DNA from: Deinococcales bacterium
Lineage (GTDB): Bacteria; Deinococcota; Deinococci; Deinococcales; JAAFIG01
Reading direction: 5' to 3'
NCBI GenBank assembly: GCA_025359505.1
Contig: JANYHH010000077.1
Coordinates: 64,784 to 128,783, forward strand
Length of the DNA stretch: 64,000 nucleotides
Under the pieces are notes generated by a model that did no database searches, was not told where the DNA came from, and worked only from the letters and a program-made list of their open reading frames with translations. The position numbers were made by a program, and so were the translations under genes. Within the stretch, counting starts at the first letter, position 1. The number at the start of each line of letters is the position of its first letter. Below are positions 4,183-34,344 of this stretch, one piece after another.

Positions 4183-4665
4183 ATGAGTCTTCAATTCAAA
4201 CCAATGAGCCACATCCCCATCCCAGACTGGCTCGAGTTGCTGAACCATCCGCTCGTCAAGCGCCACATGCCGCTCGCGACCGAGGATTTCACCGTGTCGT
4301 CGTGCCAAAGCTGGATCGAAGGTAAGGAGCGGTTGTGGCAAACGCACGGGCATGGCCCACAAGCGATTGTGCATCAGGACGAGTTCGTTGGCTGGGGCGG
4401 CTTTCAGCCTGACGGGGACGACATCGACTTGGGACTGGTCTTGCATCCGCAGCACTGGGGGCTGGGCATTACGCTTTTCAAAGCTTTCCTGCGCCAAGGG
4501 TTCGAGACGCACCGTTTTCGCAGCATCGTGATCGCATTGCCAGAATCGCGCACGCGCACGCGGGCACTCTCGAGAATTGGGTTTCAGCGCGACGGCGATT
4601 ACGACGTGGGCAACGTTTTATTTCATCGCTGGCGGCTCGAGAACACAAGCGCTCGTGACCTATGA
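4183..4665 (+). CDS. GNAT family N-acetyltransferase
   Basis: 160 aa with HPQHWGLGITLFKAFLRQGF (motif A-like) and a RimJ/L-like C-terminus RIGFQRDGDYD. Confidence 0.8.
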   Translation: MSLQFKPMSHIPIPDWLELLNHPLVKRHMPLATEDFTVSSCQSWIEGKERLWQTHGHGPQAIVHQDEFVGWGGFQPDGDDIDLGLVLHPQHWGLGITLFKAFLRQGFETHRFRSIVIALPESRTRTRALSRIGFQRDGDYDVGNVLFHRWRLENTSARDL

Positions 4666-4762
4666 CGCGTGTTGCAGTGCGCCCCGAATCTCGAGCAAAC
4701 TTTTCGCAATCATTCCGACCACTGCCAACACCAAAAACAAGGAGCTATTGATGAACATCCAA
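4578..4762 (+). repeat. junction repeat B1 (GNAT 3' end, spacer, DinB RBS and start)
   Basis: It aligns with 6705-6855 at roughly 80% identity by eye, with one internal gap of about 30 nt. Confidence 0.75.
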
Positions 4763-5275
4763 ACGTATTACACGTACCTAACTCGAGCCAGACGCGACTT
4801 ATGGGCATTCCTCGAGACCTTACCCGACGAAGTGCTGTCAAAGTCCATGATTCCGGCAGAGCGGATGCATTCCATGAAAGACCTCGTGTTGCACATCGCT
4901 GTCGTAGAAGACTCGTGGTTGCACGAGGACATCCTGCGCGACCAACCCGTCTGGGAGCGCACGTCTGGCTTTCCACAAGAATTTGAAGAGCGGTATCACG
5001 AGGCCAAACCGCTCGAGTGGCTGCTCGAGTATTGGCGGGCGGTTGAGGCGAGTACGCTCGAGTATCTGAAAACCGTGACCGACGCGGAACTCACGCAACG
5101 CGTGAGCGTGATGGGTTCCACGGACGATGTGACGTTCAGCGCCAGCGATGTGCTGTGGCACGTCGCACAGCACGAAACGCGCCACACCGCGCAGCTCGCG
5201 CTGCTGGGACGACTGGCAGGGCATACACCGCCGCAGCTTGACCTCATCAAATACCTGAGGAGCGATCATGTCTGA
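4751..5275 (+). CDS. DinB family protein
   Basis: ATG at 4751 follows an AAGGAG RBS (4738-4743). DLVLHIAVVEDSW...HVAQHETRHTAQL is the DinB/YfiT-type His triad pattern. The 4577 start was rejected because it overlaps the GNAT gene. Confidence 0.8.
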   Translation: MNIQTYYTYLTRARRDLWAFLETLPDEVLSKSMIPAERMHSMKDLVLHIAVVEDSWLHEDILRDQPVWERTSGFPQEFEERYHEAKPLEWLLEYWRAVEASTLEYLKTVTDAELTQRVSVMGSTDDVTFSASDVLWHVAQHETRHTAQLALLGRLAGHTPPQLDLIKYLRSDHV

Positions 5276-6530: not shown

Positions 6531-6792
6531 ATGTCCGATCCAGTGATCCGCGCCGCCAGCTTTCCTGATGAATTTGAATCGATTGTCGTGGTGCTGAACG
6601 TCGTCTGTCCGCTGCATCCGCGCAGCGTTAAAGAATTGCAGCACGACTGGTTCCATCTAGAGCCGGATTTGAAACCGCATTTCGCGGTCGCTGAACTGGC
6701 GGGTCGGGTTTCAGCGCGATGGCGATCACGACTTGCGCGGCGTGCTATTTCCTTGCTGGCAGCTCAAGAACCCAAGCGCTGGTGATGAGTGA
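6531..6792 (+). pseudogene. internally deleted, frameshifted GNAT remnant
   Basis: A GNAT-like N-terminus (VIRAASFPDEFESIVVVLN) is joined, in a different frame, to VGFQRDGDHDLRGVLFPCWQLKNPSAGDE. That tail is about 80% identical in nucleotide sequence to the 3' end of the 4183-4665 GNAT. Confidence 0.45.
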
Positions 6793-6855
6793 GTCGTGTT
6801 CCGGTTCACCCTGAAGTCTCGAGACACCGCTTTGGAGCTATTCATGAACATTTGA
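6705..6855 (+). repeat. junction repeat B2 (decayed copy; DinB start truncated to ATG AAC ATT TGA)
   Basis: gggtttcagcgcgatggcgatcacgac... and ggagctattcatgaacatt match B1's gggtttcagcgcgacggcgattacgac... and ggagctattgatgaacatc. Confidence 0.75.
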
Positions 6856-6995: not shown

Positions 6996-7096
6996 TTTCA
7001 ATTACTGAGTTCAGTAACTTCAGGGTAAGAATTCGTCGCAATTCAGTGCGTCTGTGATGTAAGCGTGAGTTAACCGAATCATGCCGTTATCAGTAG
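6996..7096 (+). mobile_element. MITE-like / small noncoding repeat, copy 1
   Basis: About 100 nt, roughly four-fifths identical to the reverse complement of 30243-30347. End blocks are near-perfect (tactgagttcagtaacttcagg; aaccgaatcatgccgttatcagta). TACTGA/TCAGTA motifs sit at both ends. No coding capacity. Confidence 0.6.
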
Positions 7097-7140
7097 TTAC
7101 TAACTCTGATACGAAATCCAATCGATCTTTGGGAGTCGTC

Positions 7141-8904
7141 ATGAAACACGCAAAACCCCTGCTCGCCTTCGGACTTAGCCTGTTGCTCAACGCTTGCGGC
7201 GATGCCAACCTGACCAGCTCATCGCAGCAACCCGAATCCTCGAGCGGCCCGCAACCCAACGCGGTCATCAATGGTTTGAACGCCGAGTACTTTGACACTC
7301 AAGACTTTAGCGGCCCTAGCCTGTCGAGGCTCGAGCCGAACGTCGATTTTGATTGGGGCAACGGTTCGCCGGCTTTGAACCTCGAACCCGACACCTTCTC
7401 GGCTCGTTACAGCGGTGAGCTTGTTGCGCCGAGCACGGGGACGTACACGTTTTACGCCACGTCCGACGACGGCGAACGCCTTTACATCAACGGACAGACC
7501 GTGCTCAGCGATTTCGAGGACCACTGGGCCCGGACGACCAGCGGCACGATCAACTTGCTGGCCGGAAAACGGGTTCCGATCAGGCTCGAGTATTTTGAAA
7601 ACACACAAAGAGCCAGCTTGAAGCTCGAGTGGAGCGGGCCCGGCGTGACCCGCCAAGTGATCCCAACGGCGCAATTATTCGGAATCGCGGTGGTTGCAAC
7701 ACCGCCGATCGGAGCGGTTTTTTTCATCGCAGCGATCGGCAATGACGACAACATCGGCACTGAGGCGTTGCCGTGGAAGACCATTCACAAGGCTGTCGGA
7801 ACGCTGAAGGCGGGCCAAACGGTGCTGATCAAAAACGGCACGTACTTCGGTGGGCTGTACATCCAACAGTCCGGCGCTCCCGGCAAACCGATCACCTTCA
7901 AGGCTTTCCCCGGGGATGAACCGATCATCAATGTCAATCAAGCAACGAGCGGCGCGTTTCTCGAGGGCGTGTCCTATGTCAACCTCGAAGGTCTGGATTT
8001 TGAGTACACCGCTCCCGGTGCTCAGCAGGCCAATGGTGAACGCGGCGAGGCCGGGATCATGATGCAAGATTCGCCCAGCGGGGCGCATTCGCATCACATC
8101 ACGATCATCAACAATCGGGTTCACAACTTCCCCGGTGGTGGCATCGGCAGCAACCTTTCGGATTACATCACCATTGAAGGCAATACGGTCTGGGAGAACG
8201 CGCTCTGGTCAAAGTACGATGGGAGCGGCATTTCTTTATACAGAAGCCTGAACGTCGATACCGCCAGCGGGTTTCATAATTTCATTCGCGGCAACACGGT
8301 TTTCAACAACGAGAACCGCGTGCCAGATTTCAAGAGCCTCGCCATCACCGATGGCAATTGCATCATCATTGACGACTCCAGAAACACCCAGCACGAGCTT
8401 GGTGATCCCCTCAAAGATAAGCGGTACACGGCCGCGACTCTGATCGAGAACAACATCTGCTCGGGCAACGGTGGTGGCGGGTTGCGGATTTACTCCTCAG
8501 ACAACGTGCTGGCACGCCACAACACGCTGTATCAAAACCAGTTCACTCCGACGATCAACACCGGCGAGATGACCGCCTACGATGCCAGCAACGTGCGATT
8601 TATCAACAACATTGTCTACACCAGCAAACGGGCCAATGGAACCGCCAATGCCACGGACATCGTTTACGAACGCAACCTGTACTTTGGCACGACCGACATT
8701 CCGATCTTCACCTCGAGCGATCTGAATGCCGATCCTCTGTTCGAGGCTCCCAGCAGCAACTTGACCTCGGCCAATTTTCGTTTGCGAGTCGGCAGTCCGG
8801 CGATCGATACAGCGTTGAACGGTCAATCACCCGCGACCGACATCGCTGGTCGCTCGAGACCGTTGGGGCTTGGGTCAGATTTGGGCGCGTGGGAATCCCG
8901 TTGA
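7141..8904 (+). CDS. lipoprotein with PA14 domain and right-handed parallel beta-helix (polysaccharide lyase/hydrolase-like)
   Basis: Signal peptide plus lipobox (LLLNAC). NAEYFDTQDFSG...TFSARYSGELVAPSTGTYTFYATSDDGERLYINGQ...LEYFEN is a PA14 domain. It is followed by repeated NN-x-V/I-x-N beta-helix turns. Confidence 0.8.
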   Translation: MKHAKPLLAFGLSLLLNACGDANLTSSSQQPESSSGPQPNAVINGLNAEYFDTQDFSGPSLSRLEPNVDFDWGNGSPALNLEPDTFSARYSGELVAPSTGTYTFYATSDDGERLYINGQTVLSDFEDHWARTTSGTINLLAGKRVPIRLEYFENTQRASLKLEWSGPGVTRQVIPTAQLFGIAVVATPPIGAVFFIAAIGNDDNIGTEALPWKTIHKAVGTLKAGQTVLIKNGTYFGGLYIQQSGAPGKPITFKAFPGDEPIINVNQATSGAFLEGVSYVNLEGLDFEYTAPGAQQANGERGEAGIMMQDSPSGAHSHHITIINNRVHNFPGGGIGSNLSDYITIEGNTVWENALWSKYDGSGISLYRSLNVDTASGFHNFIRGNTVFNNENRVPDFKSLAITDGNCIIIDDSRNTQHELGDPLKDKRYTAATLIENNICSGNGGGGLRIYSSDNVLARHNTLYQNQFTPTINTGEMTAYDASNVRFINNIVYTSKRANGTANATDIVYERNLYFGTTDIPIFTSSDLNADPLFEAPSSNLTSANFRLRVGSPAIDTALNGQSPATDIAGRSRPLGLGSDLGAWESR

Positions 8905-28671: not shown

Positions 28672-28778
28672 AAATTTTCAATCAGCGGCCACCCTCGAGA
28701 CCCACACGCTCGAGGAATCGGCATTCAAACAGCAGCGCTTCAGCGCTGATGTTATCAGTTCCTCAAGGAGATATGCGT

Positions 28779-30083
28779 ATGAGAAAACGGCTCGCAACAC
28801 TGGTGACTTTCGGGATCGCAGCGGGCATCACGGGCTTGGTCAGTGCACAGTCCCCGGCCGCACCCGCGACCAATCCTTTAAAAGGCAACCCCGATTTGAA
28901 GGGCGAAATCACCGTTTTTAGTTGGGCCGAAGCCAGTTACAGCAGCGTTCTACCAGACTTCAACAAGCTCTATCCAAACATCAAAGTCAAATTCGCCACG
29001 GTCGGCTACGCCGATGCGTACCCAAAGATCACCGCAAGTCTGGCGGGCAACGTGCCGCTGGCCGATGTCGTGATGATCGAAAGCGAGCGCGTCGAGATTT
29101 ACGGTACGCGCTTCCCGAATGCCTTCACTGATTTGAGCAACTGGGGCAGCAAATTTGAGCGCAATTTCGACCGCACAAAGTGGACGCAGAGCGTCGTTAA
29201 AGGCAAACTGATCACCATGCCAACCGACGCCGCGCCAGTCGGCATGTGGTATCGCAGCGACCTGTTTGATAAGGCTGGCATCAACCCGCAAAGCATTAAA
29301 ACGTGGAACGATTACCTAGAAGCGGGTAAGAAAATCGTCGCTGCCAATCCCGGCGTGAAGATGTCTGGCATTGACGCCACGGGTTCAGAGACGCTGATGC
29401 GGATCCTGATTCAGCAACAAGGCAGTTTTTACATTGACGGTGACGGCAAGATTGCTGTGAACAGCCCAAAAATGGTACGGGCGCTGAGCTTCGTGAAGTC
29501 CGCTTGGGACGCTGGGATTTTGCTGAACGTGCAAGGTACGGACGGACTGATCGGCTCGATCAAGGCCAGTCGCGTTGCGGCCGTCAACCTGCCCGTCTGG
29601 ATGATCGGGGTCTTCAAAGGCTACGCCCCAGAACAAAAAGGCAAGTGGGGCGTGGTTCAAGTGCCCGCGCTGACCGTCGGTGGCGGACAAAGCGCTTACA
29701 TCGGTGGCAGCACCCTAGCCATTCCCGCCAACAGCCCGAACAAGGACGCGGCTTGGGCATTTGTCGAGTGGTACACGACTTACGGCTCCAAGAATGTCTT
29801 AGAGAAGCGCGGCTCGTGGCCAAGCTTCCTGCCCAGCCTGCAAGCCCCGGTGCTGAACGCGCAAGACAATTTCTTTGCGACACCCAACGTCTTCGCGCCA
29901 TTCAAACAAAGCGCTTTTCTGGGCCGCCCGCTGAAATACTCGAGCGATTACGATAAGGCAGTAGCCGCCGTCGTCACCGCGCAAGCCAGCGTGCTGACGG
30001 GTGGGCAGAATGTCAAAGCCGCACTGGACAAAGCAGCCAACGACCTGAAAAACCAGACTGGGCGCGAGATCGCCGGGCAGTGA
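28779..30083 (+). CDS. sugar ABC transporter substrate-binding protein (family 1)
   Basis: AAGGAG RBS 8 nt before ATG 28779, signal peptide, and typical ITVFSWAE...YPNIKVKF...WYRSDLF pattern. Confidence 0.85.
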   Translation: MRKRLATLVTFGIAAGITGLVSAQSPAAPATNPLKGNPDLKGEITVFSWAEASYSSVLPDFNKLYPNIKVKFATVGYADAYPKITASLAGNVPLADVVMIESERVEIYGTRFPNAFTDLSNWGSKFERNFDRTKWTQSVVKGKLITMPTDAAPVGMWYRSDLFDKAGINPQSIKTWNDYLEAGKKIVAANPGVKMSGIDATGSETLMRILIQQQGSFYIDGDGKIAVNSPKMVRALSFVKSAWDAGILLNVQGTDGLIGSIKASRVAAVNLPVWMIGVFKGYAPEQKGKWGVVQVPALTVGGGQSAYIGGSTLAIPANSPNKDAAWAFVEWYTTYGSKNVLEKRGSWPSFLPSLQAPVLNAQDNFFATPNVFAPFKQSAFLGRPLKYSSDYDKAVAAVVTAQASVLTGGQNVKAALDKAANDLKNQTGREIAGQ

Positions 30084-30102
30084 TGTAAACGCCTGTAGCG
30101 GC

Positions 30103-30139
30103 GGCTCGAGGTGTGAACATCTGTAAAGCTCCTCGAGCC
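30103..30139 (+). other. intercistronic hairpin after the SBP gene
   Basis: GGCTCGAGG-19 nt-CCTCGAGCC forms a 9-bp stem 20 nt after the stop codon. No U-tract. It may act as an mRNA stabiliser or attenuator. Confidence 0.35.
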
Positions 30140-30242
30140 ACCGAATGAATGCGCCCGTCAAAAGATTCAATCTCGAGCCGCTCCAGCTTTGAACAAGTCT
30201 CGAGCAAACCAAGCCCCATTCAGATGCGGCGGAGTCCACGAC

Positions 30243-30347
30243 TTACTGATAACGGCATGATTCGGTTCACTCACGCCTCCGACGGAAACGCACCAAATTG
30301 CGCTGTATCCTTAACCTGAAGTTACCGAACTCAGTAGCATGATTGAA
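30243..30347 (-). mobile_element. MITE-like / small noncoding repeat, copy 2 (inverted)
   Basis: It is the reverse complement of copy 1. It lies in the SBP-permease spacer and reaches the permease ATG. Confidence 0.6.
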
Positions 30348-31238
30348 TCTCGCGCACTCCTCCCCTCGAGCCGCCGCTTGCAACGCACCCGGTTGACGCC
30401 GTTCGCGTTCCTGATGCCCGCACTGGTGCTGTACGCACTGTTCACCGCGTACCCAGTTGCCCGCGCCTTCGTATTGAGCGTGCAACGCAACGTCGATGGC
30501 GAGGTGCGTTTCTCTGGACTGGCGCAGTACCAGCGCTTGCTGAGCGACGATGTTTTTCGGCAAGCGCTGTTCAACACGCTGATTTTTTTAGTCGCCCAAG
30601 TTCCCGTGATGCTGATCGCGGCGCTGCTGATCGCCGTGGCACTCAACTCGCCGCACTTCCCGTTTCGCAGCGCCCTTCGCAGCGCGTACTTCCTGCCGAG
30701 CATCATGAGCCTCGTCGCGGTTGGAACGCTGTTTCGGGTGCTGCTGAACGAGGATTTGGGTTTGGTGAATTACGTGCTGCGCGAATTTGGGCTGGCGGGC
30801 GTGCCGTGGATCACCCATCCGTGGTGGGCGAAAATCACCGTGATGCTGCTGTTGACGTGGCGCTACACCGGCTTCATGATGGTGATTTACTTGGCTGGAT
30901 TGCAAAATATCCCGCCTGAACTCTACGAAGCCGCTCAGATCGACGGAGCTGAGCCAGTGCAGTCTTTTTGGCACATCACCCTGCCGCTGCTGCGCCCGAC
31001 GATTCTGTTTACAACCGTGCTGTCGACCATTAGCGTGCTGCAAATCTTCGACGAAGCACTGATCGTCACGCGGGGCGGGCCCGCCAACGAAACCCTGACG
31101 ATCGGCTTGTACCTCTACCAGACGGTTTTCTCGAGCGTGGATTTCCACTATGCGGCTGCGATCTCGGTGGTGTTGGTCGTGGTGATTGGGGCGCTGGCGG
31201 TGCTGCAACTCAAAGCCGGCGAGCGAGGACAAACGTGA
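30339..31238 (+). CDS. carbohydrate ABC transporter permease (MalF/UgpA-like)
   Basis: Six TM segments. EAA loop: YEAAQIDGAEPVQSFWHITLPLLRP. Confidence 0.9.
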   Translation: MIESRALLPSSRRLQRTRLTPFAFLMPALVLYALFTAYPVARAFVLSVQRNVDGEVRFSGLAQYQRLLSDDVFRQALFNTLIFLVAQVPVMLIAALLIAVALNSPHFPFRSALRSAYFLPSIMSLVAVGTLFRVLLNEDLGLVNYVLREFGLAGVPWITHPWWAKITVMLLLTWRYTGFMMVIYLAGLQNIPPELYEAAQIDGAEPVQSFWHITLPLLRPTILFTTVLSTISVLQIFDEALIVTRGGPANETLTIGLYLYQTVFSSVDFHYAAAISVVLVVVIGALAVLQLKAGERGQT

Positions 31239-32077
31239 AGCGGCGCTGGTCATTCGCGCAAACGCTGGCATTGATCGTCGTGGCACTTGGAGCGCTGCTG
31301 GCGGTTTTTCCGTTCTACTGGATGTTCAGCGCCGCGACGCGACTCTCGAGCGAGGTGCTGGGCATCCCGCCGCGCTTAGACATCGGGAGTGCTCTGCTCA
31401 CCAACCTCGAGACGCTGGTCGGTAAGGGTTTCCTGCTGGCGGCTTGGAACTCAGCCTTCATCGCCCTGACCACGACTGCGTTGACGGTGCTGGTCTCGAG
31501 CATGGCGGGTTTCGCGTTCACGCAGTACCGCTTCGGCGCTCGGGAGCCGCTGTTCGCTTTCTTTTTGGTGACGTTGATCGTCCCGCCGCAGGTGACGATT
31601 GTGCCGCTGTTTCAACTGATGGCGGGGCAAAATCCGCTCGGGCTGAACCTGCTGGGCACGCCGTGGGCGATTATTTTGCCAGCGCTCAGCAACAGCTTCG
31701 CTATTTTTTTCTGCCGTCAAACCTTTCAGAAATACCCGCCAGAACTGAGCGACGCGGCTCGAGTCGATGGGGCGAACGAATGGCAGGTCTACTGGCAAGT
31801 TGCCATGCCCAGCGTCCGCTCGTCGCTGGCCGCGCTGAGCGTCTTCGTGTTTTTAGGGCAATGGAATAGCTTTTTCCTGCCGCTGATCATGAACGGCAAC
31901 AACGATGCTGGGCGCACTTTGCCGCTGGCGATCTCGGCATTGATCGGCGAGAACAGCGTCGATTACGGCGCGTTGATCGCGGGAACAGCACTGTCGGTGC
32001 TGCCGGTGCTGGTGTTTTTCCTGTTCGCACAACGCCTGTTCGTCAGCGGCGCGTTGTCGGGATCAGTCAAGGGTTAA
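31235..32077 (+). CDS. carbohydrate ABC transporter permease (MalG/UgpE-like)
   Basis: EAA loop SDAARVDGANEWQVYWQVAMPSVRS. There is a 4-nt overlap with the upstream permease. Confidence 0.9.
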   Translation: MKRRWSFAQTLALIVVALGALLAVFPFYWMFSAATRLSSEVLGIPPRLDIGSALLTNLETLVGKGFLLAAWNSAFIALTTTALTVLVSSMAGFAFTQYRFGAREPLFAFFLVTLIVPPQVTIVPLFQLMAGQNPLGLNLLGTPWAIILPALSNSFAIFFCRQTFQKYPPELSDAARVDGANEWQVYWQVAMPSVRSSLAALSVFVFLGQWNSFFLPLIMNGNNDAGRTLPLAISALIGENSVDYGALIAGTALSVLPVLVFFLFAQRLFVSGALSGSVKG

Positions 32078-32193
32078 AGGACGTATCAAGTCTCGAGAGC
32101 TTTGAACGCACAGTAAAGCACTTCGAGTCATCACTGGGCGCGACCCTCGAGAGTCAAGCAGCATCACCGATCTCACCGCTATAGAGGAGCGTT

Positions 32194-34344
32194 ATGACCA
32201 CCAACAACGATCAGTCGCCGTTGCCGCAATCCGACCTCGAGACTCGAGCGCTGGAGTTGCTGTCGCAGATGACGCTGAATGAAAAAATAGCGAATCTGTC
32301 TGGTTCCACGCCGTTCTGGTCTGGACTGGCGGATATCCTCGGTGGCGCTTACAACCGCCACACGTGGGACGCGGGGCATACGCAGCGCCTTGGGTTGGAC
32401 GGCATCCGCTTCACGGACGGCCCACGCGGCATCGTCATCGGACAGGCCACGACCTTTCCGGTCAGCATGGCCAGAGGCGCGACGTGGGACGTTGACTTGG
32501 AGCGCCGGATCGGGGAGGCGATGGGCAGGGAGGCTCGAGCGGTCGGGGCGAACCTGTTCGGTGGCGTGTGCATCAACTTGTTGCGTCACCCCGCTTGGGG
32601 ACGCGCTCAGGAAACCTACGGCGAGGACTCGCATCTGCTGGCAGAGTTTGGTGTGGCGCTCACAGTCGGGGCGCAGCATCACGTGATGGCGTGCGTCAAA
32701 CATTTCGCGCTCAACAATATGGAAAACGCTCGCTTCAGCATCGACGTGCAAGCCTCCTCTCGAGTGCTGCACGAGGTTTACCTGCCGCATTTCAAGCGGG
32801 TCGTCGACGCGGGCGTGGCTTGCGTGATGAGCGCCTACAACAGCGTCAACGGGCAATGGGCTGGGCACTCGAGTGAATTGCTGACCGAGATTCTCAAAAC
32901 CCGTTGGGGCTTTGGCGGTTTCGTCGTCACCGATTGGATTTTCGGGATGCGCGACTCACGGCTGGCTATGCTCGGCGGACAGGATCTCGAGATGCCGTTT
33001 CAAATGCACCACCACCGCGATTTGCAGCGGCTGGTCGAAGCGGGTGAAGTCTCAGTGGCTCGGATTGACGACGCGAACCTGCGGATGCTGCGAATGCAAC
33101 TGCATTTCACGCAATCTGACACCGTGGACGTGAGCGTGATGGGGTCATCGGCGCACCGGCAACTGGCGCTCGAGGCGGCGCAAAAGAGTATTGTGCTGCT
33201 GAAAAACGCGGGTGATCTGCTGCCGCTCCGCAGCGATACAAGGCTGGCGGTGATCGGAGCATTGGCGGCGATCCCCAACACGGGCGATGGCGGGTCATCC
33301 AATACCGTGTCTCAGCACATCGTCACGCCGCTCGAGGGCGTGCAGGCTGGGTTCACGCAGGTCACCTACGACGACGGTCAGGATCTCGAGCGAGCTAAAA
33401 TGCTGGCTCGCTCGAGCGAAGCTGTGCTGCTGGTCGTTGGCTACACCAAAGCCGACGAGGGCGAGTTCGTCTCGCCCGACACCACCAGCGGGCTGCGGAG
33501 TTTGTTTCCCGCCCCAACCTCGCCCACAGAGATTGAGATTGCTGGGCTTGTCGCCAGCGGACTGGCGGCTCGAGCCGAAGCCAGCGGTGCATTTTCACGC
33601 GGCGGTGATCGCGCCAGTTTGCATTTGAACTCCAGCGACGAAGCGTTGATTCAGGCCGTGGCGAGTGCCAACCAGAACGTCATCGTCGCCGTTATGGCCG
33701 GCAGCGCCGTGTTGATGAACGCTTGGGAGGACGCGGTGAGCGCGATTGTCTTGCTGTGGTATCCGGGCATGGAGGGCGGGCACGCACTGAGCGACGTATT
33801 GCTTGGGCGCGTCAACCCAAGCGGGAAACTGCCATTCAGCATCGCCAAAACCGACGCGCACTACCCATATTTCGACCGCGATGCGGTGAGTGTCACCTAC
33901 GACCTTTGGCACGGCTACCGCAAGCTGGAACGCGACGGGAACCCAGCCGCCTACCCGTTCGGCTTTGGATTGAGCTACACCACTTACGCCTACAGTGACT
34001 TGCGGCTCGAGCAGCAACAGAGCAGCGTGACGGCGACGGTGCGAGTGACGAACACGGGACGAAATGCGGGAGAGGAAATCGTTCAGCTTTACGTGTCCGC
34101 ACTGGATTCTGCGGTCGAGCGGCCCGTCAAGGAACTGAAAGCCTTCGCCAGAATCGCGTTGCAGCCTTTAGAGTCCAAACGTGTCTCGCTTAACGTGCTG
34201 ACCTCGAGCCTCGAGTATTTCGACGAGCTACTTGGTGAATTTATCTTAGAACCTAGGGAGTACGAATTTATTGTCGCTCAACATTCAGCGGACGCGAATG
34301 CGCTGCGCGGCAAAATCCGCTTAGGCGAACGCGGGGATACGTGA
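32194..34344 (+). CDS. glycoside hydrolase family 3 beta-glucosidase
   Basis: KHFALNNMEN, the GFVVTDW nucleophile region, and a C-terminal Fn3-like domain (VRVTNTGRNAGEEIVQLYV). Confidence 0.9.
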   Translation: MTTNNDQSPLPQSDLETRALELLSQMTLNEKIANLSGSTPFWSGLADILGGAYNRHTWDAGHTQRLGLDGIRFTDGPRGIVIGQATTFPVSMARGATWDVDLERRIGEAMGREARAVGANLFGGVCINLLRHPAWGRAQETYGEDSHLLAEFGVALTVGAQHHVMACVKHFALNNMENARFSIDVQASSRVLHEVYLPHFKRVVDAGVACVMSAYNSVNGQWAGHSSELLTEILKTRWGFGGFVVTDWIFGMRDSRLAMLGGQDLEMPFQMHHHRDLQRLVEAGEVSVARIDDANLRMLRMQLHFTQSDTVDVSVMGSSAHRQLALEAAQKSIVLLKNAGDLLPLRSDTRLAVIGALAAIPNTGDGGSSNTVSQHIVTPLEGVQAGFTQVTYDDGQDLERAKMLARSSEAVLLVVGYTKADEGEFVSPDTTSGLRSLFPAPTSPTEIEIAGLVASGLAARAEASGAFSRGGDRASLHLNSSDEALIQAVASANQNVIVAVMAGSAVLMNAWEDAVSAIVLLWYPGMEGGHALSDVLLGRVNPSGKLPFSIAKTDAHYPYFDRDAVSVTYDLWHGYRKLERDGNPAAYPFGFGLSYTTYAYSDLRLEQQQSSVTATVRVTNTGRNAGEEIVQLYVSALDSAVERPVKELKAFARIALQPLESKRVSLNVLTSSLEYFDELLGEFILEPREYEFIVAQHSADANALRGKIRLGERGDT

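Follow-up and report, generated by a model that had tools for sequence, protein, structure and literature searches.

The 64-kb window (the whole stretch of DNA that was analysed) contains two copies of a short repeat, each upstream of a protein-coding gene. Copy A lies in a ~350-nt spacer, 45 nt upstream of the ATG (7141) of a gene for a PA14/beta-helix lipoprotein, with Pfam matches to PA14 (3e-28) and Beta_helix (1e-11). The GGGAG motif and the ATG of this gene are intact, 35-45 nt 3' of copy A, and its start region is untouched. Copy B lies in a 255-nt gap of a sugar ABC operon (28749-34344); a solute-binding-protein (SBP) gene (28749-30083) precedes the gap, and the first permease gene follows it with its ATG at 30339. 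The operon also encodes a second permease and a GH3 glycosidase; a ROK regulator gene lies upstream and is transcribed divergently. Relative to their downstream genes, the two copies are oriented oppositely. The first-pass annotation had given the same gene context, with the PA14/beta-helix lipoprotein and a sugar permease downstream of the copies.

The two copies form an inverted pair, 7003-7095 (+) and 30244-30336, recovered by a repeat finder as 93 nt with 83% complementarity. It is the longest inverted pair in the window. A repeat of ~100 nt with ~80% identity had been proposed from inspection of the sequence and proves to be real; the pair was correctly located, with 5' ends drawn too far out by 7 nt in copy A and 11 nt in copy B. 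A MAFFT alignment of wider 170-nt regions around the copies has a mean column identity of 82%, and the flanking sequence is not common to both. By block, the 5' end has 24/26 identical positions, the centre 21/34 and the 3' end 32/33, in agreement with the near-perfect ends and variable centre described earlier. Each end block occurs exactly twice in the window with at most 3 mismatches, and not once in 100 shuffles. The repeat unit is 89 bp long with one TA on each side (Table 1), and with a GC content of 43-50%, against 59% for the window, it is relatively AT-rich. The palindrome TTACTGA-gt-TCAGTAA noted at the start of the element is perfect in copy A; it does not hold for copy B or for nearly all other members of the family described below, in which position 11 is G and not A.

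Table 1 Features at the two copies of the repeat, with positions in the window
Feature	Position	Strand	Basis
Copy A, left TA target-site duplication	7003..7004	+	sequence
Copy A, 89-bp body of the probable MITE (CTGAG...ATCAG)	7005..7093	+	nhmmer E=1.6e-28 vs family profile
Copy A, 5' terminal repeat	about 7005-7026	+	part of the element body
Copy A, conserved 3' block, 34 nt	7062-7095	+	
Copy A, right TA target-site duplication	7094..7095	+	sequence
GGGAG Shine-Dalgarno-like motif and ATG (7141) of the lipoprotein gene	7131..7143	+	sequence
GGAG, presumed original Shine-Dalgarno of the permease gene	30231..30234	+	alignment of reconstructed empty site with L043
Copy B, TA target-site duplication, element 3' side	30244..30245	-	sequence, empty-site alignment, flank tabulation
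Copy B, 89-bp body of the probable MITE, reverse relative to the operon	30246..30334	-	nhmmer E=1.1e-25
Copy B, TA target-site duplication, element 5' side, 2 nt before the permease ATG	30335..30336	-	
First ABC permease gene, start codon abutting copy B	30339..31238	+	Pfam BPD_transp_1

Two pairs of direct repeats, 77-84% identical, are also present in the window (4540-4720 vs 6667-6847, and 1565-1634 vs 2427-2496). The first pair reads as coding sequence for the C-termini of small paralogous genes (GFQRDGD...), and one of these genes ends ~210 nt upstream of copy A. One partner of the second pair is located at the 3' end of ORF 482-1624, a GNAT acetyltransferase according to Pfam; the neighbouring ORF 1605-2486 has no Pfam match.

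A dispersed family in a related genome

An 18-mer from the conserved end, GAATCATGCCGTTATCAG, was scanned exactly against one genome per species (596 Gb). It occurs at 40 loci, 21 of them in a single 5.09-Mb chromosome, OZ252252.1 ('MAG: Deinococcales bacterium'), a genome to which the window does not belong. The remaining 19 are scattered in unrelated taxa, where by our own calculation ~17 are expected by chance. A family profile run with nhmmer over the 21 OZ252252.1 loci of 8 kb each, about 168 kb in all, identifies 27 copies over their full length and a single 22-nt fragment. Six of these copies are diverged and lack the exact 18-mer; six additional copies in about 166 kb suggest that the whole genome may hold of the order of 100 or more, although this figure is only roughly extrapolated and the sample is biased. 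Among the OZ252252.1 copies, seven are identical and 12 are alike to at least 95%, which indicates that the family was recently active in this genome. The copies fall into at least three subfamilies that differ in their centres and have their ends in common. Stop codons interrupt five of the six frames of the master copy and no peptide is conserved across subfamilies, in line with the earlier statement that the repeat encodes nothing conserved. That statement came with the suggestion of a miniature mobile element, for which copy number would be informative, and the 21 exact sites and 27 full copies in a related genome show that the repeat is indeed multi-copy.

Copy A is 87% identical to L028, one of the OZ252252.1 copies, 85% identical to the master copy and 83% identical to copy B. 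Since copy A is closer to L028 than to copy B, the window copies represent independent insertions from different subfamilies; judged by these identities, they arrived separately and are not duplicates of each other. This bears on the alternative, raised in the first-pass annotation, of a local inverted duplication private to the 64-kb region. Just two copies are visible in the window, as a duplication would leave them, but another genome holds dozens of them, copy A has its better match in L028 (87%, against 83% for copy B), and no flanking sequence accompanies the pair. The OZ252252.1 copies and the identity between copy A and L028 refute a local origin, to which we assign practically no probability.

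The genes adjoining the OZ252252.1 copies are mutually unrelated and include beta-lactamase-like, DinB, RNase T, P-loop kinase, LeuD-like, ureidoglycolate lyase and RibD_C genes. Copies are found in both orientations, many at the 3' ends of genes. The association with carbohydrate-related genes that had been pointed out for the window is in this light a coincidence of two copies.

The 22-nt fragment, at L020:6652-6674, consists of the last 22 nt of the 3' end and stands alone. Immediately before it ends a 380-aa ORF, rich in Ser, Pro and Gly, that has no Pfam match; an HTH/DUF6932 gene pair adjoins the fragment. A loose stretch resembling a terminal inverted repeat (TIR), 1.6 kb upstream at 5070-5100, would enclose this ORF together with the fragment but is not significant in nhmmer. 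We regard L020 as a solo fragment.

In the short-read assembly of the window's own sample (Logan SRR20627842), the contig that carries the PA14 gene (L042) starts at position 7066, inside the 3' block of copy A, and the contig with copy B reads through the element. The break at 7066 is a hint that the window's own genome carries more copies of the 'GAGTTAACCG...' type.

Insertion of copy B in a sugar ABC operon

Orthologous loci (L043-L050) have the same ROK-SBP-permease-permease-GH3 gene order, and the element is absent from all five of these operons. Their spacers are too diverged for blastn. When the element is taken out of the window and one TA is kept, the remaining sequence aligns unbroken with L043 (GCA_965193395.1), with a score of 112; with the element left in, the alignment is heavily gapped and the score falls to 80. 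The reconstructed junction in the window reads ...GGCGGAGTCCACGA-CT[TA]GCATGATTGAA, and that of L043 ...GACGGAGTTCA-GACCGCAG-ATGATTGAA. By this alignment, the SBP-permease spacer of L043 is the orthologous empty site of copy B. The junction itself has diverged (CCGCAG in L043 vs CT-TA-GC), so the duplicated bases are not directly countable there. Insertion polymorphism, another mark by which a mobile element was to be recognized, is therefore seen for copy B, which is missing from five orthologous operons and whose flanks are contiguous in L043. In the case of copy A, the element is absent from the closest homologue that has flanking sequence (79% amino acid identity; L059-61), where the upstream gene is a different one and the spacer does not align.

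The position of copy B has changed the translation start region of the first permease gene. The orthologous permeases (90-93% identity) begin at the same place, and the insertion, 2 nt before the start codon, added 91 nt between GGAG, the presumed original Shine-Dalgarno sequence, and the ATG. The distance between these two is now 104 nt; it would be 13 nt without the insertion and is 12 nt in L043. At 30337-30341 element sequence now stands before the conserved ATG, and the 100 nt nearest to it contain no Shine-Dalgarno-like motif. The permease may be translated by coupling, by leaderless-like initiation or at a low level.

Copy B is probably co-transcribed with the operon. Its position, between the genes for the binding protein and the first permease of a sugar ABC operon, is equivalent to that of the REP/BIME palindromic repeat between malE and malF in E. 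coli, which tunes relative expression. Copy B may lower permease translation or make it dependent on coupling, or may affect mRNA decay in a REP-like manner. Such an expression effect belongs to malE-malF; REPs differ from the present element in that they are 20-40 nt long, leave no target duplications and are tied to RAYT enzymes, whereas the Deinococcales element is 89 bp long and has target duplications. Should copy B shift the proportion of binding protein to permease, this would most plausibly be a by-product of insertion and not a designed function. We also considered a split ribosome-binding site, in which a stem formed by the element would rejoin GGAG to the AUG, as in the precedent of phage T4 gene 38. 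The closing stem has an ensemble probability of only ~7% in a 241-nt mRNA, and the idea is unsupported.

The first-pass annotation had offered, as a fallback, an orientation-independent regulatory module, that is, a cluster of protein-binding sites that controls carbohydrate genes. Both window copies are located just 5' of carbohydrate-related genes, TACTGA/TCAGTA half-sites occur three times per copy, and the ROK regulator gene adjoins the operon of copy B, all of which would suit such a module. The five orthologous ROK-SBP-permease operons nevertheless work without the element, and copies in OZ252252.1 stand beside unrelated genes, often at their 3' ends. Seven identical copies point to recent spread and not to conserved regulation, and copy B sits within an operon, 2 nt from a start codon. 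Promoter and terminator scans revealed no promoter-like or terminator-like motifs around either window copy. A regulatory module finds no support in these data and is very unlikely.

Ends, target duplication and mode of transposition

Similarity starts and stops at the same base in all copies, and the body is exactly 89 bp long in 24 of the 28. All copies are bounded by CTGAG...ATCAG; the body begins with CTGAGTTCGG and terminates with CCGTTATCAG. The terminal and subterminal repeats are imperfect, with 5' CTGAGTTCGG[T/C]A... at one end and 3' ...[T/C]CGAATCATGCCGTTATCAG at the other, such that TACTGA pairs in inverted orientation with TCAGTA and TTCGG[T/C] with [A/G]CCGAA. The short terminal inverted motifs seen in the initial inspection, TACTGA...TCAGTA, are confirmed as part of these repeats. 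About 16 of the 22 terminal positions match in one subfamily, and in L021 the terminal repeat is perfect over 16 nt. The repeats are also asymmetric, a point against the MITE reading: the 5' end of the master subfamily lacks ~10 nt that are found in the reverse complement of the 3' end.

TA stands on both sides of the element in 21 of the 28 family copies, L010 and L033 among them. Two well-preserved copies have matched flanks other than TA, AA/AA in L013 and TT/TT in L028, and mismatched flanks are confined to visibly decayed copies. The matched AA/AA and TT/TT pairs imply that the flanking dinucleotide is a 2-bp target-site duplication and not the terminal bases of the element. A pyrimidine precedes the TA in 25 of 28 copies, and a purine follows it in 21 of 25, so that the target consensus is Y-TA-R. 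Defined ends and target duplications had been set out at the start as signs of a mobile element; the ends are fixed to the base, and the 2-bp duplications include matched non-TA cases.

As DNA, master copies are predicted to form long hairpins (z=-5.2 and -5.5). When 17 distinct copies are aligned, 86% of the cells pair in the chosen structure, and columns 13 and 71 show a clean compensatory switch, C-G in 10 copies and T-A in 7; an alternative pairing register of the same alignment shows no compensatory change. Two individual copies carry rearrangements of interest. In L011:1266-1363, a master-type copy, the 10-nt loop is exactly reverse-complemented (AAGCTTTGTA for TACAAAGCTT) with the stems unchanged, which is the signature of a hairpin-mediated loop inversion in DNA. 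In L021:1638-1736, four consecutive bases of the 5' arm are changed from GTTC to TAAC, and as a result the 5' end reads exactly as the 3' end does in reverse complement (TACTGATAACGGCATG), which resembles a templated conversion from arm to arm. Together, the inverted loop and the converted arm point to hairpin formation in DNA.

The potential to form a hairpin, with one or two covarying pairs, could also be taken as the mark of a structured non-coding RNA, be it a small RNA or a cis-regulatory leader, and copy B would be transcribed within the operon mRNA. The window copies, however, fold like shuffles on either strand (z from -1.2 to +0.15), the central helices vary between subfamilies, and the two copies face opposite ways relative to their downstream genes. 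Rfam gives no match for the whole window at the gathering score, and none at E<=1 for copy A or for one master copy. Covariation between inverted repeats is moreover expected for transposon ends regardless of any RNA function. This second fallback of the first-pass annotation fares no better than the regulatory module, and the Rfam, folding, gene-neighbour and motif-scan results taken together make both of them unlikely; we regard a dedicated RNA as highly improbable.

A hairpin in DNA would also fit an element moved as single-stranded DNA by an HUH/Y1 enzyme, such as a REPIN/RAYT or an IS200/IS605-derived palindromic element. The long hairpins of the master copies (z about -5), the compensatory change in the stem, and the loop inversion in L011 and arm conversion in L021 all speak for this explanation, and IS200/IS605 elements are active in Deinococcus. 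Yet HUH elements make no target duplication and insert beside a fixed tetra- or pentanucleotide, on one side only. The flanks observed here are two-sided 2-bp duplications, matched AA/AA and TT/TT pairs included. The ends are CTGAG/ATCAG where a GTAG-type REP head would be found, and there is no RAYT or TnpA gene near any copy examined. Movement by an HUH/Y1 enzyme is accordingly improbable.

Bacterial miniature inverted-repeat elements (MITEs) are defined as shorter than 200 bp, with TIRs, terminal TA and target duplication (PMC2229807). The present family has the features of the published definition, being 89 bp long and non-coding, dispersed in many copies, with TIRs, target duplication, and filled and empty sites. 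With copy number, ends, duplication, target preference, insertion polymorphism and hairpin potential observed, we conclude with good confidence that both repeats in the window represent a non-autonomous DNA transposon (MITE), which a transposase of the IS630/Tc1-mariner type probably mobilises in trans. The miniature mobile element that had been the first choice of the initial reading thus stands, on account of the multiple copies, defined ends, target duplications and insertion polymorphism.

A 2-bp TA duplication and a palindromic NTAN target are the hallmark of the IS630/Tc1-mariner superfamily, and the Y-TA-R target and 2-bp TA duplication of the present family fit this description. We infer the type of transposase and a cut-and-paste chemistry as follows. 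Both ends would be bound by a DDE transposase whose gene lies elsewhere, most likely one of the IS630/Tc1-mariner type; the element would insert at a TA in a Y-TA-R context; and repair of the 2-nt staggered cut would duplicate the TA. The partner was sought with orphan termini (at most 1 mismatch), all-against-all blastn of the loci, and Pfam on 25 copy-adjacent ORFs and the window. Neither a transposase nor a full-length IS whose ends match turned up in the window, in about 168 kb of OZ252252.1, in the plasmid database, in JGI metagenome contigs or in IMG/VR. The plasmid database and IMG/VR contain no match to the element, and all eight JGI metagenome matches represent one unrelated sequence that has only the 20-mer in common with it. 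Because no partner was found, the IS630 assignment is based solely on the 2-bp TA duplication and the YTAR target.

It seems unlikely, if somewhat less so than movement by an HUH/Y1 enzyme, that the element is more than a parasite, with selection on a hairpin used by the host, or that the family is moved by an unrecognised transposase. The latter option arises because no known partner was found. Behind the former are the 89-bp length in 24 of 28 copies despite different centres, the near-invariant 34-nt 3' block and the compensatory stem changes; in the operon of copy B, for example, host use could take the form of an RNA element within the operon, by which the amount of binding protein is set relative to that of permease.

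Comparison with known repeats, and palindromes in the window

The MITE reading places the family beside several known systems. The pneumococcal repeat unit (RUP) is 107 bp long and TA-targeting, and its partner, IS630-Spn1, is known from TIR identity (PMC2229807). RUP and the IS630-linked MITEs resemble the Deinococcales element in being ~100 bp long, non-coding and mostly intergenic, with TIRs, TA insertion and duplication, subfamilies, and tens to hundreds of copies. A further IS630-linked MITE is Nezha, of cyanobacteria. Neither RUP nor Nezha has sequence similarity to the Deinococcales element, which differs in that its ends start with CTGA and are asymmetric and that no partner has been found for it.

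The Correia elements of Neisseria and ERIC/RU-1 of Enterobacteria are small palindromic TA-flanked repeats (PMC2229807). The Deinococcales element is likewise small, palindromic and TA-flanked, and copy B would, like them, be co-transcribed with its neighbours. Correia and ERIC/RU-1 carry an IHF site, promoters and RNase III targets and can change mRNA processing or expression, whereas no promoter-like or terminator-like motif accompanies the copies in the window.

Small noncoding repeats (SNRs) number 295 copies in D. radiodurans and are absent from D. geothermalis (PMC1978522). SNR1-9 of D. radiodurans and the present family are alike as lineage-specific mosaic small non-coding repeats from the same order with a patchy distribution, compared here by description only. 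The likeness to these repeats put forward in the first-pass annotation is, as far as the exact 18-mer scan shows, only one of kind: no Deinococcus species representative matched GAATCATGCCGTTATCAG, and outside OZ252252.1 there are chance-level matches only.

Literature searches, which were not aimed at this sequence, found no publication that describes this MITE family, and nothing matching the family came up in Rfam, plasmids, viral contigs or the metagenome set. Bacteria commonly carry TA-flanked MITEs; the repeat is of an ordinary kind, and this particular family seems to be undescribed. It leaves the current view of how such elements work unchanged. It does provide a well-delimited MITE family for an uncultured Deinococcales lineage, in which seven identical copies suggest recent or current activity. 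In annotation it accounts for contig breaks and odd spacers and helps to avoid false calls of small ORFs and ncRNAs, and it is usable as a strain marker. Copy B represents a natural test of a 91-nt insertion between a ribosome-binding site and a start codon in an ABC operon.

Apart from the repeat family, the window is unusual in its 6-nt palindromes. GGCGCC, GAGCTC, CAGCTG and GGTACC have 0 copies each in 64 kb at 59% GC, where zero-order expectations are roughly 20-40, which suggests strong restriction-site avoidance. CTCGAG, by contrast with its zero-order expectation of 20.5, occurs 416 times in the 64 kb (6.5/kb), a ~20-fold excess, with a median spacing of 105 nt. It is by far the commonest hexamer in the window, usually as G-CTCGAG-C, and within genes it is found in all three codon phases. 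Its density reaches 16-20/kb in three of the four intergenic gaps checked and is 2.9/kb in the fourth, the 350-nt spacer of copy A. In related genomes (the L001-L040 loci of OZ252252.1, and L043, L045, L047, L048 and L059) it amounts to 3.4-6.8/kb. No link between CTCGAG and iterated palindromes was found in the literature searched. In its abundance CTCGAG resembles, by analogy, the 'highly iterated palindrome' HIP1 of cyanobacteria, and its excess may be more unusual than the MITE finding itself.
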